Positions 3,245 to 37,244 of a DNA stretch of 64,000 bases are shown here, in pieces. This DNA comes from Rhodospirillales bacterium. GTDB lineage: Bacteria > Pseudomonadota > Alphaproteobacteria > Micavibrionales > UBA1664. Under the pieces are notes generated by a model, which was given only the letters and a program-made list of their open reading frames with translations, searched no databases and had not been told where the DNA came from. The stretch's first letter is position 1; every line of letters starts with the position of its first letter. The stretch is taken from the NCBI GenBank assembly GCA_023898805.1, contig CP060260.1, positions 1,425,656 to 1,489,655 of the forward strand, read 5' to 3'. Position numbers and translations under genes: made by a program.

Positions 3245-3808
3245 TCAGGACGCTTCTTTCAGGACTCCGTTCTCCTCAACATAGCGTCTTCCCTCGCGTG
3301 GGCAAACCAAATCCGGACCCAAAATCTCGCCCGCATGCGAAACCCAGCCCCGCCGCCGCGCCGGAACCCCGACCATCAGCGCGTGGTCGGGCACATCGCA
3401 CGTCACCACCGCGCCCGCGCCGATCATGCAGTATGCGCCAAGCGTATGGCCGCACACGATGGTCGCGTTGGCGCCGATCGTGGCGCCGCGCCTGACCAGC
3501 GTGGGCCTGAATTCATCCTTGCGCTGGACGTTCGCGCGGGGGTTGAGGACGTTGGTGAACACGCAGGACGGGCCGCAGAACACGTCCTCCTCCAGCGTCA
3601 CGCCCTTATATAGGCTGACATTGTTCTGGATCTTGCACCCGTCGCCGACGCGCACGTCCGGCCCCACCATCGCGTTTTGCCCGACGACACAGCCCGCACC
3701 GATCACGGTATCGGGCAGGATATGCGCGAAATGCCAGATCTTGCTGCCCGCGCCGATCGTGGCCCCGTCGTCGACATAGGCGCTTTCATGGACAAATACG
3801 TTGCTCAT
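3245..3808 (-). CDS. wbpD: Left-handed beta-helix N-acetyltransferase, WbpD-like
   Basis: Hexapeptide repeats throughout (IGAGSKIWHFAHI, IGAGCVVGQNAMVG, VGDGCKIQNNVS). Start trimmed to MSNVFVHE at 3808, which gives an ATGA overlap with the upstream gene's stop. The 224-aa track ORF carries an Arg/Gly-rich extension. Confidence 0.8.
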   Translation of the reverse strand: MSNVFVHESAYVDDGATIGAGSKIWHFAHILPDTVIGAGCVVGQNAMVGPDVRVGDGCKIQNNVSLYKGVTLEEDVFCGPSCVFTNVLNPRANVQRKDEFRPTLVRRGATIGANATIVCGHTLGAYCMIGAGAVVTCDVPDHALMVGVPARRRGWVSHAGEILGPDLVCPREGRRYVEENGVLKEAS

Positions 3809-31755: not shown

Positions 31756-31830
31756 TGGTGGGCACTGCAGGGATTGAACCTGCGACCCCCACCATGTCAA
31801 GGTGATGCTCTCCCGCTGAGCTAAGTGCCC
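31756..31830 (-). tRNA. tRNA-Val (anticodon GAC), CCA encoded
   Basis: Hand-folded cloverleaf: acceptor GGGCACT/AGTGCCC, D stem GCTC/GAGC, anticodon stem TCACC/GGTGG with loop TTGACAT, T stem GCAGG/CCTGC with loop TTCAATC, discriminator A, then CCA; 75 nt. Confidence 0.95.
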
Positions 31831-32351: not shown

Positions 32352-33308
32352 ATGACCACCGTTCTTATCGCCGATATTGGCGGCACGAATGCGCGTTTCG
32401 CGCTGGCCGACGACACAGGAATCCATGATCCGCGCACCCTTAAGGTCGCCGATTTTCCCGGCCCTGCCGAGGCCGCGCGCGCCTATCTGGACGCTTGCGG
32501 CGCGAAACCGGCGCGCGGCGTGTTCGCGGTGGCGGCGCCGGTGACGGGCGATGACGTCTTTACCCTGACCAATTTTCCGTGGACCTTTTCCCTGCGTGCC
32601 TGCGCCGCTGCGCTGGGTCTGGAATCCCTGCACCTGATCAATGATTTTCACGCGCAGGCGCTGGGCGCGGCGGATGTCGGTGCGTCCTGCCTGTACAAGT
32701 TTGACGATGCTATGCCCCGTTCCGGCGGCAATATCGGCATTATCGGCCCTGGCACCGGCCTTGGCGTCGCGGCGTTGGTCCATGATTCAAAAAGCAACCG
32801 TATGATCGCCGTGCCGGGCGAGGGCGGGCATGTCACCGCTCCGCTGGTCACGCCGCGCGAATTCGCGCTTGCGCGCTGGCTGCTCGAACACCGCTATTCC
32901 CACATCTCCGCCGAGCGTGTCTGCTCCGGAAAGGGGTTGGTCAATCTGTACGACGCGGTGCGCGGCGTCGATGCCCTCGACCTGCCCGACCGCACGCCGG
33001 AGGAGATCAGCGATGCCGCGCTTGCGGGCGCCTGTCCCGCCTGTGCCGAGGTACTGACATTGATGCTGGCTTTTCTGGGCCGCGTCGCGGGCAATCTGGC
33101 GCTGACCGTGACGGCGGATGCCGGAGTCTATCTGACTGGCGGCATCCTGCCGCGCCTGCCGCGCGAATACCTTTTGGCCTCTCCCTTGCGCGCGAACTTC
33201 GTCGCCAAAGGGCGTCAGACCGATTACATCAGCCGCATGCCGCTGTTTCTGGTCGACGATCCGGTTCTTGCCCTGCGCGGGCTGCGCCACGCCGCGCTTA
33301 AAGCATGA
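32352..33308 (+). CDS. glk: Glucokinase
   Basis: LIADIGGTNARFAL, INDFHAQA, GPGTGLG and GEGGH motifs of the bacterial Glk family. Confidence 0.92.
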   Translation: MTTVLIADIGGTNARFALADDTGIHDPRTLKVADFPGPAEAARAYLDACGAKPARGVFAVAAPVTGDDVFTLTNFPWTFSLRACAAALGLESLHLINDFHAQALGAADVGASCLYKFDDAMPRSGGNIGIIGPGTGLGVAALVHDSKSNRMIAVPGEGGHVTAPLVTPREFALARWLLEHRYSHISAERVCSGKGLVNLYDAVRGVDALDLPDRTPEEISDAALAGACPACAEVLTLMLAFLGRVAGNLALTVTADAGVYLTGGILPRLPREYLLASPLRANFVAKGRQTDYISRMPLFLVDDPVLALRGLRHAALKA

Positions 33309-34279
33309 ACGAATTTGTCCTGCCGCAGGAACTTGATGGCGCGCGGCTGGACCGCGCGCTGGCGACCTTGGTCCCCGATCTTTCGCGCTCGCGGCTCAAG
33401 GCGTTGATAGTGGCGGGGGAAGTGCGCGTCGACGGCAAAATCGTGGACAGCGCGTCGCATAAGCTGCGCGCGGGCTCGTTCCTCGCACTGAGCATCCCGC
33501 CGCCCGTCCCGGCCGAACCGGAGGCGCAGGACATCCCGCTGAACATCGTTTTCGAGGATTCATCGCTGTTGGTGCTCGACAAGCCCGCGGGTCTGGTGGT
33601 TCACCCCGCCGCCGGCCATGCCGCGGGCACGCTGGTCAACGCGCTTTTGCATCATTGCGCGGGCACGCTTTCCGGCATCGGCGGGGTGGCGCGGCCCGGC
33701 ATCGTGCACCGTCTGGACAAGGATACGTCCGGCCTGATGCTGGTGGCCAAGACCGACCGCGCCCATGCGGCGCTGGCCAGACAGCTTGCCGAGCGCGCCA
33801 TGTCGCGCACCTACCGGGCCTGTATCTGGGGCGTGCCGGTGCCGTCAAAGGGCCGGATCGACGCCGCGATCGCCCGTCACCCGCGCGACCGCCTGCGCAT
33901 GGCGGTGCATCCGGGCGGGCGCGCCGCCGCCACCAATTACGCGGTATGCGAACGCTTTGGCGCGCTGGCCGCGCTGGTCGAATGCAGGCTTGAATCCGGG
34001 CGCACGCACCAGATCCGGGTGCATATGCGGCATCTGGGATACCCGCTGGTCGGCGACCCGCTTTACGGCCTTCAGCCGACCGCCGCCAAAAGCCGCCTGA
34101 AAAAATCGGGTCTGGAAGGCGATTGCGCCATGGCGATTCTTGAATTTCCGCGTCAGGCGCTGCACGCCGTGGCGCTGGAATTCGTCCATCCGGAAACAGG
34201 GCGCGACATGCGCTTTGAAAGCGCCTTGCCCGCCGACCTTGAAACCCTGTGCGCTTCCCTGCGCCAGGCAAAGTCTTGA
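33305..34279 (+). CDS. rluD: RluA-family 23S rRNA pseudouridine synthase (RluD type, N-terminal S4 domain)
   Basis: S4-like N-terminus, LVLDKPAGLVVHP, the catalytic HRLDKDTSGL and GRTHQIRVH. Confidence 0.85.
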   Translation: MNEFVLPQELDGARLDRALATLVPDLSRSRLKALIVAGEVRVDGKIVDSASHKLRAGSFLALSIPPPVPAEPEAQDIPLNIVFEDSSLLVLDKPAGLVVHPAAGHAAGTLVNALLHHCAGTLSGIGGVARPGIVHRLDKDTSGLMLVAKTDRAHAALARQLAERAMSRTYRACIWGVPVPSKGRIDAAIARHPRDRLRMAVHPGGRAAATNYAVCERFGALAALVECRLESGRTHQIRVHMRHLGYPLVGDPLYGLQPTAAKSRLKKSGLEGDCAMAILEFPRQALHAVALEFVHPETGRDMRFESALPADLETLCASLRQAKS

Positions 34280-34305
34280 GGTAAGAAGAAAATCAAAAAT
34301 AAAGC

Positions 34306-34334
34306 TTGCATCCCGCTAAAATTTTATGTAAATT
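34306..34334 (+). promoter_or_regulatory. Candidate sigma70-type promoter for the sRNA candidate
   Basis: TTGCAT (34306-34311), a 17-nt spacer, then TAAATT (34329-34334), in the only strongly AT-rich patch of this intergenic region. Confidence 0.35.
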
Positions 34335-34340
34335 AAAAGA

Positions 34341-34452
34341 ATAGGGGCTGCGCTTGCCGATCAGTAACGGACCGCCCCTTGCAGATTTACTTTTATGACT
34401 TCGTGTGACCCACTTTTCAAACTTTCGGCCGCCTTCGGGCGGCCGCTTTTTT
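34341..34452 (+). ncRNA. Candidate small RNA (about 110 nt), or a structured rluD 3' UTR
   Basis: 5' stem AGGGGC (34343-34348) paired with GCCCCT (34374-34379), an A/U-rich single-stranded linker, then a strong terminator. No downstream gene on this strand. Confidence 0.4.
34426..34452 (+). terminator. Rho-independent terminator
   Basis: CGGCCGCC-ttcg-GGCGGCCG (GNRA-like/UUCG loop) followed by C and TTTTTT (34447-34452). The U-tract is present only on the plus strand. Confidence 0.85.
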
Positions 34453-34459
34453 ATTGCCG

Positions 34460-35686
34460 TTAATCAAGCATCTGCGGCCAGTGCCGTGCCACCTCGCGCG
34501 CCGAAAATCCCTCGGTCATCCGGTCGAGTGGCAGCGGCCGGTCGAGCGTCTGTCCGCCATCGCGCCCGACCTGCCGGAACGTGGCCTCCACCGCGCGATG
34601 TCTGGAACCGCCCAAAGGCCACACGAAACGCACCGAAGGGTCCAGCCGCGTGTCGCGGAAGAATCCCTGATTTTCCTGATACCCGCTCCATGCGATCCGT
34701 GCCTCCAGCCGCGCGCCGTTGTCAAAGCCCTGCGACATGGTCAAGGCCGCCCCGTAATCTCCGGCCAGAAACCGGCCGGCGGCCAGCGTGGCGCCGAACC
34801 GCGATTCCGGCATGTCGTACCCGATCCGCGCCTGCCCGGTGAAACGTGCCGAGCCCGTAAAGGGCAGGTTGCCGATGCGCGCCGGGTCGCGCCGCCACAC
34901 CGCCCACCCATCCGCGCCCGCCCAGAAGGACGACCCGAAAGGGCGCCAGACGACTTCCGCGCCCGTCCCGCCGTACATTTCCTCAAGCCAGCCAGCGCTG
35001 ACCGCCAGATGCAGGTCGGTGACCGGTGTCCGCCGCCATGACGCGAACAGGCGCTCGACTTCCGGATGCGCAGAATAGAGTGCGATGTCGCGCCGCACGG
35101 GCGGGCGCGTGTCACCGGATAAAAGCAGCGCCGAGGTATTGTCGTTCAGTGTGCCCGCGACCGCGCCGCCGAAAATGAACCCATATGGACGCGTGAACAA
35201 CGCCTCCGCCACCGTGCGCGTACGCTCAAGAATTTTCGGCTCAAATCGGCTGAATCCCGTCAACATGTCGGCATAAACCCGCCAGTAAAATGCCCGCCCC
35301 AGCGATTTGAGCGAGGTCACCGGCGGCGGTGCGCATCCACCCACGCGCTCCATGTTCCACCGCGCCTTTTGCCACAATTCCTGCGGCGATGTCTGGTGCA
35401 AGCCGACCGCCAACCGCACGTCGCGCGAAAGCAATGTCACGCTCGGTCCCATCAGTCCGGCCATGCGCGGCTGTATGGTGACCATGCCGGAATCCTCGAA
35501 TTCCGCACCTTGCCACCGCGCCTTTTTCAATCCATACCCCACCCCGTGCGCCAGATCCTCGTCCAGCCGCAGCGCCACACACCGCCGCGAATCGGCGGAC
35601 CACGCCGGCGTCACGCAGACCATGGACAACAGCCCCAAAAGCGGCACAATCATCAGGCAAAACCGCCTGCGCGCGGGGATGTCCAT
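34460..35686 (-). CDS. YjbH-domain-like outer-membrane/exopolysaccharide-associated protein (short form)
   Basis: Sec signal (LLGLLSMVCVTPAWSA). The C-terminal half resembles the YjbH family core (AGRFLAGDYGAALTMSQGFDNGARLEA...). Start ambiguous among 35722, 35695 and 35686. Confidence 0.5.
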   Translation of the reverse strand: MDIPARRRFCLMIVPLLGLLSMVCVTPAWSADSRRCVALRLDEDLAHGVGYGLKKARWQGAEFEDSGMVTIQPRMAGLMGPSVTLLSRDVRLAVGLHQTSPQELWQKARWNMERVGGCAPPPVTSLKSLGRAFYWRVYADMLTGFSRFEPKILERTRTVAEALFTRPYGFIFGGAVAGTLNDNTSALLLSGDTRPPVRRDIALYSAHPEVERLFASWRRTPVTDLHLAVSAGWLEEMYGGTGAEVVWRPFGSSFWAGADGWAVWRRDPARIGNLPFTGSARFTGQARIGYDMPESRFGATLAAGRFLAGDYGAALTMSQGFDNGARLEARIAWSGYQENQGFFRDTRLDPSVRFVWPLGGSRHRAVEATFRQVGRDGGQTLDRPLPLDRMTEGFSAREVARHWPQMLD

Positions 35687-35706
35687 GTAAAACATACGGG
35701 TCCACT

Positions 35707-37244
35707 GTGAATTCGCATACAACCGCCGTCAAAGGGGCGCCACCCTTTGTCCACGAAAATCGCTTCGACCTTGCCATCATCGGTGGCGGGGTGAACGGCA
35801 CCGCCATCGCGCGCGACGCGGCCGGGCGCGGCTATCGCGTGGCGTTGTTTGAAAGCGGCGATCTGGCCTGCGCGACCTCCTGCGCATCGACCAAACTGAT
35901 CCATGGCGGGCTGCGCTATCTCGAATACGGCGAACTGCGTCTGGTCAAAAAGGCGCTGGCGGAACGCGAGGTGTTTTTGAAAACCGCCCCGCATATCGTA
36001 AGCCCGATGCGTTTTGTCCTGCCGCTGACCGACGGCGCGCGCCCGGCCTGGATGATCCGCCTTGGCCTTGCCCTGTACGATCATCTTGCGCGGCGCGACG
36101 TGCTGCCGGATTCGCGTCGGCTTGACCTGCGCGCCGACGCGGCGGGTGCGCCGCTGTTTGCCAATATGCGCACGGGCTTTGTCTATGCCGACGCCCGCGT
36201 CGACGACGCGCGGCTGGTCGTGCTTCAGGCGGTGGACGCCGCGCGCAATGGCGCGCAGATTTTCACGCGCACCCCTGTGCGCGACCTGACGCCGGACGGG
36301 GCGGGGGGCTGGGACGTCGAAACCGAAACCGACCGCCGCTTTCATGCGCGCATGGTGGTCAACGCGGCCGGGCCCTGGGTACGTCGCGTGCTGGAACGCA
36401 ACGGACTGGTGGAGGGGGACACCCCGAAAATCCGTCTTGTGCGCGGATCGCACATCGTTGTCCCGGCGATTTACGATGGCGATCAGGCCTATCTGCTGCA
36501 ACAACCCGACGGCCGCGTCGTGTTTGCAATCCCGTACGAAGGCCGCTTCACCCTGATCGGCACCACCGATGTCGAACACACCGAAGGACCGGACGTGCCC
36601 CCTGCCTGCACCCGCGACGAGGCCGAGTATCTGTGCGATGCCGTCAACCGTTTCTTTACCCGCCAGACCCTGCCGCAGATGATCGTCTGGTCCTATTCCG
36701 GCGTTCGCCCCTTGTTTGACGACGGCAGCGGACGTGCGGCCGCAGTCACGCGCGACTATCACCTTTATCGCCAGTCGGTAAAAAACGCGCCGCTGCTTTC
36801 GGTTTATGGCGGAAAGATCACCACCGCGCGGATGCTGGCCGAAACCGTGACCGACGACGTCGCGCGCACGCTGGACGCCGCGATCGGCCCGCGTCCGCCG
36901 GCATGGACCGCAGGCGTGCCACTGCCCGGCGGCGAATTGCCCGAAGGCAGCCTGTATGAATTCACGGGCGATCTTTGCGCCATGTATCCGTGGCTTGAGG
37001 CCGCGACCATCGAACGTCTGGCGCGCGCCTACGGCACGCGCGCGCTGCGTATTCTGGGCGGCGCGCATCATCCGTCCGATCTTGGTCGCGATTTCGGCGC
37101 GGGTCTGTACGAGGCCGAAATCGCATATCTGTGCGAGGCCGAATGGGCGCGCACGGCCGAGGATATTCTCTGGCGCCGCACCAAGCTGGGCCTGCACGCC
37201 GGGCACGATACGCGCACGTTGCTCGAACGCCATTTGGGGGAAGC

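Follow-up and report, generated by a model that had tools for sequence, protein, structure and literature searches.

A candidate small regulatory RNA gene downstream of rluD in uncultured Alphaproteobacteria

In the stretch of DNA analyzed here (64 kb, called the window below), the rluD gene is followed by an intergenic region (34280–34459), behind which a gene encoding a YjbH-domain protein is located in convergent orientation. The genes and the elements we distinguished between them are listed in Table 1. The stop codon of rluD occupies positions 34277–34279, and the encoded protein is identical to the "RluA family pseudouridine synthase" of a Rhodospirillales MAG (GCA_020638235.1); it is also present on a 1.9-Mb contig. 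Upstream, the stop of glk and the start of rluD overlap by 4 nt (33305–33308), and this overlap suggests that, in the window, the two genes form one operon; glk does not adjoin rluD in several relatives. A tRNA-Val(GAC) gene on the minus strand (31756–31830) is the sole RNA gene that Rfam and ARAGORN detect in the window, and a tRNA is found at the equivalent position in L087, L089, L090, and L091.

Table 1. Genes and predicted elements in and around the rluD–yjbH intergenic region (positions in the window)
Feature	Position	Strand	Remarks
glk, glucokinase	32352–33308		3' end overlaps the start of rluD
rluD, RluA-family 23S rRNA pseudouridine synthase	33305–34279	+	Pfam PF00849 (PseudoU_synth_2), PF01479 (S4)
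A-rich tract upstream of the -35 element	34295–34303	+	AAA(A) invariant or nearly so in 10 lineages
Putative -35 element, TTGCAT	34306–34311	+	TTG invariant in 10 lineages, 17 nt before TAAATT
Promoter box TAAAATTTTATGTAAATTA, including the -10 hexamer	34317–34335	+	conserved in relatives
Putative -10 hexamer, TAAATT	34329–34334	+	17-nt spacing from TTGCAT
Predicted sRNA transcript, ~112 nt	34341–34452	+	predicted +1 to end of the U-tract
SL1, 5' stem-loop	34341–34381	+	outer helix 34341–34349 / 34373–34381
Linker CAGAUUUACUUUUAUGAC, U-rich	34382–34399	+	one RUGAC copy (AUGAC)
Conserved single-stranded motif UUCGUGUGACCCAC, candidate seed, 14 nt	34400–34413	+	
Intrinsic terminator CGGCCGCC-UUCG-GGCGGCCG, then C and U6	34426–34452	+	hairpin 34426–34445, 8/8 GC pairs
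Convergent YjbH-domain gene (yjbH)	34460–35722	-	Pfam PF06082; start 35695 in public gene calls

An earlier sequence-only reading of this region had proposed a small RNA (sRNA), and the elements on which it relied were all recovered at the stated positions. The AT-rich patch that it noticed at the beginning of the intergenic region is reflected in a GC content of 0.39–0.42 over 34250–34399, compared with 0.55–0.77 in the flanks. The two hexamers that it had read as a promoter, TTGCAT and TAAATT (34306–34334), are present and 17 nt apart. They match the sigma-70 consensus at three of six (-35) and four of six positions (-10), which is 7/12 in total, and a generic promoter scan omits the pair; from the window sequence alone, this promoter is not above chance. 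We infer that the A-rich tract upstream of the -35 element resembles an UP element. The proposed 5' stem (34343–34379) is indeed an inverted repeat of AGGGGC (34343–34348) and GCCCCT (34374–34379), which forms the core of the stem-loop SL1, and the interior of SL1 carries a semi-conserved AACGGAC. The terminator that had been called strong consists of eight uninterrupted GC pairs followed by CTTTTTT and is listed by a terminator scan. Its hairpin begins 147 nt behind the stop codon of rluD, in agreement with the roughly 150 nt given before. As had also been stated, the U-tract exists only on the plus strand, the hairpin being preceded by AAACTTT, so that a U-run is absent on the minus strand. 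The stop codon of yjbH is 8 nt away from this U-tract.

One of the earlier descriptions had to be refined. The stretch between the 5' stem and the terminator had been described as about 45 nt of A/U-rich, unstructured sequence. Here, we found that the motif it contains is mostly unpaired by prediction, but that this stretch is no filler, as it ends in a conserved 14-nt motif (34400–34413). It had furthermore been noted that no plus-strand gene follows; the next gene is the convergent yjbH, and the first real gene on the plus strand is glpD, which begins at 35707. The fold of the window sequence itself is unremarkable and only mildly better than that of shuffled sequences (z-score of -2.16 for the 180-nt region and of -1.17 for the 112-nt transcript). 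When we searched the 64-kb window with a sequence profile derived from the hand alignment, in which the window copy was included, no second copy of the sRNA was detected.

For comparative analysis, relatives were collected protein by protein from RluD matches. The unit was found downstream of rluD in at least eleven lineages (the window, L087, L089, L090, L091, L093, L095, L098, L100, L102, and L104), so that the conservation in related genomes which the sequence-only reading had asked about is given. Ten of these, all except L104, are referred to as the standard lineages; L104 was left out of the promoter alignment. The RluD proteins of the ten further lineages share 61–66% identity with that of the window, and at the four-fold degenerate sites of rluD the identity to the window amounts to 0.36–0.52 (nine lineages measured); with the GC3 bias taken into account, these sites are nearly saturated. 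The same species is represented by six contigs from different samples, which are uninformative because their intergenic region is identical. Searching genome contigs with RluD returned distant loci only (at most 55% identity), and a scan of metagenomes with a box-N-seed pattern retrieved no contig beyond one that was already known.

The gene order around the unit is conserved only in part. In the window, L087, L089, and L091, a response regulator gene, glk, rluD, and the gap follow each other in this order, and the genes upstream of rluD differ in the remaining lineages. Downstream, yjbH on the minus strand is followed by glpD and glpK wherever the contig is long enough, with the exception of L104, which lacks yjbH. 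Both glpD and glpK are seen on the same strand in the window, L089, and L090, whereas glpD alone is visible up to the end of the locus in L087, L098, L100, and L102. The immediate downstream neighbor of the sRNA varies: it is the convergent yjbH, an extra minus-strand ORF (L087), a plus-strand gene (L095), or glpD (L104), and in L087 and L095 this other gene stands between the sRNA and yjbH. Only the linkage to rluD is constant across the lineages. Because the downstream neighbor varies, the element is very unlikely to be the leader of the next gene.

In the window, the start codons of the divergently oriented yjbH and glpD genes are about 11 nt apart or overlap (yjbH 35695 or 35722, glpD 35707), so that each promoter must sit within the other gene. 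Across the loci, this distance ranges from about 1 to 85 nt. A promoter-like box for glpD (TGGACA-N16-CACAAT, 35623–35650) is located inside the signal-peptide codons of yjbH and is conserved in L089, L090, L098, L100, and L102. In two lineages the yjbH frame reaches into the oppositely oriented sRNA gene (L098 3601–3629, L100 3574–3630); it overlaps the terminator in L098 and both terminator and seed in L100, and the 3' ends of the sRNA and of the yjbH mRNA would therefore be fully complementary. In L087 (4143–4180) and L091 (4154–4190), a second hairpin with a T-run is found past the sRNA terminator, and these tandem terminators are absent from the window.

The promoter region could be aligned without gaps in the ten standard lineages. 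Both TTG and TTTATGTAAATTA are invariant, the spacing between TTGnnn and TAAATT is always 17 nt, and a T directly precedes TTTATGTAAATTA in nine of the ten. The box occurs once in the 64-kb window and is also present in L104, where the 5' end is AUGGGG. Seven nucleotides past the -10 hexamer, a conserved AU(A/G)GG opens the covarying helix of SL1. From this motif and from the position of the -10 hexamer the transcription start was placed at about 34341, which is where the sequence-only reading had expected it. The box with its fixed spacing is conserved more strongly than any other part of the locus, the RNA body included. The predicted promoter at 34306–34334 is supported by its conservation in relatives and not by the scan of the window. 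The near-invariance of the box suggests that transcription is under the control of a dedicated regulator. By inspection, a sigma-32 promoter (CTTGAAA...xxxxATNT) does not fit, since a 10-nt spacer would be needed, which is too short; a CtrA box (TTAA-N7-TTAA) and a palindromic operator are not present in the box.

The RNA body measures 108–131 nt in the ten standard lineages and about 215 nt in L104, and it has accumulated many insertions and deletions. Covariation of the 5' stem had been suggested as a check, and we scored SL1 on a hand alignment (scored in Python) and on a separate model-fitted alignment. In the model-fitted alignment of seven lineages, 94.8% of the cells of the nine outer-helix pairs are paired, and the covariation score was reached by none of 500 shuffles. 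Five of the nine pairs show changes on both sides; in pair 3, for example, three lineages have A-U and three have G-C. Sliding one arm by 1–3 columns left only 38–65% pairing. In the hand alignment of the ten lineages, 154 of 167 cells are paired versus 57–97 in the slid controls. MAFFT combined with RNAalifold recovered the terminator alone from the ten RNAs because MAFFT cannot align SL1 across the insertions and deletions.

Directly 3' of SL1, most relatives carry UUUUGCC, and UUGCAGA is found at this position in the window, L098, and L100. The motif UUCGUGUGACCCAC follows 8–14 nt upstream of the terminator. Its full 14 nt are invariant in six lineages, GTGTGACCCAC is exact in eight of the ten standard lineages, and ACCCAC is retained in all ten; L098 and L100 keep ACCCAC only. 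The mean unpaired probability predicted for ACCCAC is at least 0.6 in eight of the ten lineages. A GC hairpin with 6–8 U follows the motif in every lineage, and the terminator is also present in L104. The latter is unusual in other respects: its unit (3525–3771) has an A-rich body of about 215 nt with two GUCGUGACGU repeats in place of the seed motif, yjbH is missing, and the terminator abuts the glpD frame. A covariance model (R1) built from five relatives, which covers SL1 through the motif and leaves out the promoter, the terminator, and the window sequence, found the window at 34336–34415 (34.9 bits, E ~1e-7) and L102 (27.5 bits, E ~2e-5). L098 and L100 were not detected by this model even with the filters off. 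Their homology is based on the identical promoter box, the position, ACCCAC, and the sequence profile, whose score is not independent for these two lineages, as they were included when the profile was built.

Taken together, these data make it likely that 34306–34452 is a free-standing sRNA gene whose product acts in trans by base pairing. The independent gene with 5' stem, linker, and terminator that the sequence-only reading had favored is supported by the invariant promoter geometry, the covarying SL1, the conserved motif, and the separation from rluD in L102 (see below). Features of trans-acting sRNAs are present, namely an intrinsic terminator with U-tail in all lineages and a conserved seed that is predicted to be accessible, from which L104 diverges, and the RNA behind rluD is probably a base-pairing regulator of this class. 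In our working model, a sigma-70-type promoter (TTG-N3, 17 nt, TAAATT) in the conserved AT-rich box would drive transcription from about 34341, and the transcript would run for about 112 nt to the strong intrinsic terminator. SL1 may protect the 5' end. The conserved motif would pair with mRNAs encoded elsewhere in the genome, and there may be two or three RUGAC-containing pairing sites, of which UUCGUGUGACCCAC would be one. The U-rich linker and the U-tail of the terminator may form a chaperone-binding module of the Hfq type, which they resemble in structure. A search of the 64-kb window for an hfq gene was negative.

The predicted base pairing was followed up with several target scans, which covered 64 kb of the ~2-Mb genome and the ~6-kb loci of the relatives. 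Target prediction from the single-stranded seed, as recommended by the sequence-only reading, gave no match above shuffled controls within this range. Across the 64-kb window, sequences complementary to the seed showed no enrichment, and when the seed was hybridized in silico to the translation-initiation regions of about 60 ORFs, the duplex energies were no better than those of shuffled seeds. Hexamer complements in the neighboring genes of the relatives (~6-kb loci) did not reveal a conserved complementary site, and duplexes computed for each lineage with the 5' regions of glpD and yjbH remained at background level.

The RUGAC element deserves separate consideration. Most of the RNAs carry two or three copies of it, in the interior of SL1, just before the seed, and within the seed. 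In total, the 11 RNAs contain 23 copies of [AG]TGAC versus 2.4 in mononucleotide shuffles, and GTGAC is the only non-trivial 5-mer that is repeated within one RNA, which is the case in six of the eleven lineages. These counts, together with the two GUCGUGACGU repeats in the expanded body of L104, would also fit an RNA that serves mainly as a protein-binding sponge or decoy, in which the repeats are binding sites and not pairing sites. We consider this rather unlikely. The RUGAC counts are not independent because the RNAs are homologous, two or three copies are few for a sponge, and sRNAs with several seeds typically show such repeats just as well. Moreover, we know of no bacterial RNA-binding protein with RUGAC specificity. 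A more far-reaching proposal would combine several of these features into a dedicated clade-wide regulatory switch of these relatives of Micavibrio, whose genomes are small (about 2 Mb): the promoter box, which has stayed the same across lineages with saturated synonymous sites, would be the operator of an unknown regulator, two or three reiterated RUGAC sites in place of a single classical seed would make the RNA a multi-seed regulator or a decoy for an unknown RNA-binding protein, and the strict linkage to rluD, in a place where most of the sampled Alphaproteobacteria have rpoH, would reflect co-regulation with ribosome maturation or stress. We give this proposal a small chance of being correct.

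The sRNA might alternatively be generated from rluD mRNA by processing, the element being no more than a structured 3' UTR with its terminator and the "promoter" an AT-rich spacer. The -35 element of the window is only about 25 nt away from the rluD stop, with no terminator in between; the unit follows rluD in every lineage in which it was found, and the hexamers match the consensus weakly. However, a passive spacer leaves both the best-conserved box of the locus and its 17-nt spacing unexplained, and AU(A/G)GG is conserved at the predicted +1, as would be expected of a primary 5' end. Furthermore, the rluD stop of L102 is directly followed by a terminator-like hairpin, and the sRNA promoter is reached only after about 195 nt of unrelated sequence. 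An origin from the 3' UTR alone is therefore quite unlikely, as promoter conservation and L102 oppose it. The possibility had been raised in the sequence-only reading, and a part of it survives. Since there is no terminator before 34452 in the window, transcription from rluD should continue across the sRNA and stop at the shared terminator, and processing of such read-through transcripts could yield a second source of the RNA next to the free-standing gene.

A third function considered is that of a cis-acting leader or attenuator, in which read-through of the terminator would give a long plus-strand transcript, antisense to yjbH, that reaches into glpD-glpK. The same-strand location of glpD and glpK downstream in the window, L089, and L090 would be compatible with such a role, as would the close spacing of the yjbH and glpD start codons and the situation in L104, where yjbH is missing and the terminator abuts glpD with little room for a separate promoter. 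Nevertheless, we regard it as very unlikely. With 8 GC pairs, a UUCG loop, and U6-8, the terminator is very strong, no conserved alternative pairing was seen, 1.25 kb of antisense yjbH lie between terminator and glpD in the window, and glpD has its own conserved promoter-like box. A riboswitch or leader should have a same-strand gene directly downstream, but the next gene in the window is convergent, a different plus-strand gene follows the sRNA in L095, and no riboswitch or leader family of Rfam reached the threshold. L104 is the only lineage with glpD directly downstream, and there the true start is likely to lie 33–45 nt further downstream.

That the region encodes a small protein is hardly credible: the 22-codon plus-strand ORF of the window (ATG 34395), for which the earlier reading had correctly stated that it lacks an RBS and reads through the terminator, is absent from the relatives together with its ATG, and the minus-strand ORF that starts from the seed complement (MGHT(K/N)..., in several relatives, many ending in LIYIK) has 6 codons in the window and about 11 in L093, varies in frame and length, and owes its shared ends to the reverse complements of seed and promoter box. 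Among the relatives, no ORF on either strand is conserved in frame and length, and the length differences are not multiples of three. We also considered mimicry of helix 69 of 23S rRNA, the substrate of RluD, as GCCG...AACGGAC in the window resembles GCCGUAACUAUAACGGUC; the hairpin is not kept in the relatives and this candidate was rejected.

The Rfam scan that had been proposed for the region did not assign it to a family. At the gathering thresholds of Rfam 15, the window contains one tRNA only and no hit in the intergenic region, and E-value scans of this region and of ten relatives gave nothing convincing, no family attaining its gathering score there. In the literature, a full-text search returned nothing relevant on the seed motif, on an rluD-linked sRNA in Alphaproteobacteria, or on Micavibrio sRNAs. 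The putative sRNA behind rluD is a new, previously undescribed family with the architecture of a textbook sRNA.

Its range appears to be narrow. In some 40 more distant alphaproteobacterial rluD loci, sequence profile and covariance model did not detect a copy. Of 15 alphaproteobacterial loci that were read, nine (L003, L005-L009, L014, L035, and L044) carry an apparent sigma-factor gene after rluD, presumably rpoH, whose place is taken by the sRNA gene in the present clade. sRNA-like units with a related promoter (TTTTACATAA) were seen after rluD in L001 (3990–4168), L002 (~2540–2790), and L103 (3500–3812). The RluD identity of such distant loci is 54–58% (L001 54%; L103, "Micavibrio sp.", 58%). 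L001 and L103 both begin with AUAGA and have UUGACYGAUCUGGUAYC as a 3' motif of their own, and L001 aligns along the whole sRNA unit. The units of L001, L002, and L103 are probably diverged homologues.

The present data add an sRNA family to a group of uncultured Alphaproteobacteria for which no regulatory RNA was found in the literature searched. They show that comparison across synonymously saturated lineages can validate promoters that are too weak for consensus scans. The alignment, the covariance model, and the landmarks (promoter box, SL1, and seed) could seed an Rfam entry, and the same alignment and landmarks enable comparative target prediction once genomes are scanned. No concept is overturned by these findings. 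They would help with annotation and with understanding an uncultured clade, but would not surprise specialists.

Among the known families, BjrC1505, an sRNA from Bradyrhizobium (RF02356, threshold 50), was the best sub-threshold match in two lineages. Its scores of 15.1 (window) and 27.8 bits (L102) are both below the gathering score; the hits rest on the terminator and on promoter DNA, the 5' third of the L102 match falling into the latter, outside of the RNA. In both RNAs, a GCCGCC-type terminator is closely preceded by a motif. The motifs themselves differ: the BjrC1505 consensus gACgCCUCCCuGUu aligns to GUGUGAC-CCAC and its CCUCCC loop to GACCCAC, and in contrast to the CCUCCC motif of the BjrC1505 model, CCUCC is found in none of the 11 RNAs. 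With the model for suhB/MmgR (alpha-r8; RF00519, threshold 41), the window reached 21.5 and L102 18.7 bits, and this match consists mostly of the terminator. In its overall design, the rluD-linked sRNA resembles chaperone-dependent sRNAs of Alphaproteobacteria that are encoded in trans and act by base pairing, such as AbcR1/2, MmgR/alpha-r8, and EcpR1. As in these, the predicted gene is intergenic, spans about 100–130 nt, and has its own sigma-70-type promoter and a 5' hairpin; a conserved single-stranded motif precedes a GC-rich terminator with a long U-tail, and the promoter has been preserved better than the RNA body. In contrast to these RNAs, it lacks a CCUCC-type anti-Shine-Dalgarno motif and carries UUCGUGUGACCCAC instead, it is always located after rluD, and it is confined to an uncultured clade. 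sRNAs of the DapZ and MicL type derive from 3' UTRs, have their own promoter, and have the terminator in common with the upstream mRNA. The window resembles this type in that the sRNA uses the terminator of rluD, the entire sRNA is part of the rluD 3' UTR, and the RNA could be produced by two routes. It differs from it in that the putative promoter is located after the stop codon and not inside the coding sequence, and in that the two units of L102 are set apart by a terminator-like site and about 195 nt.
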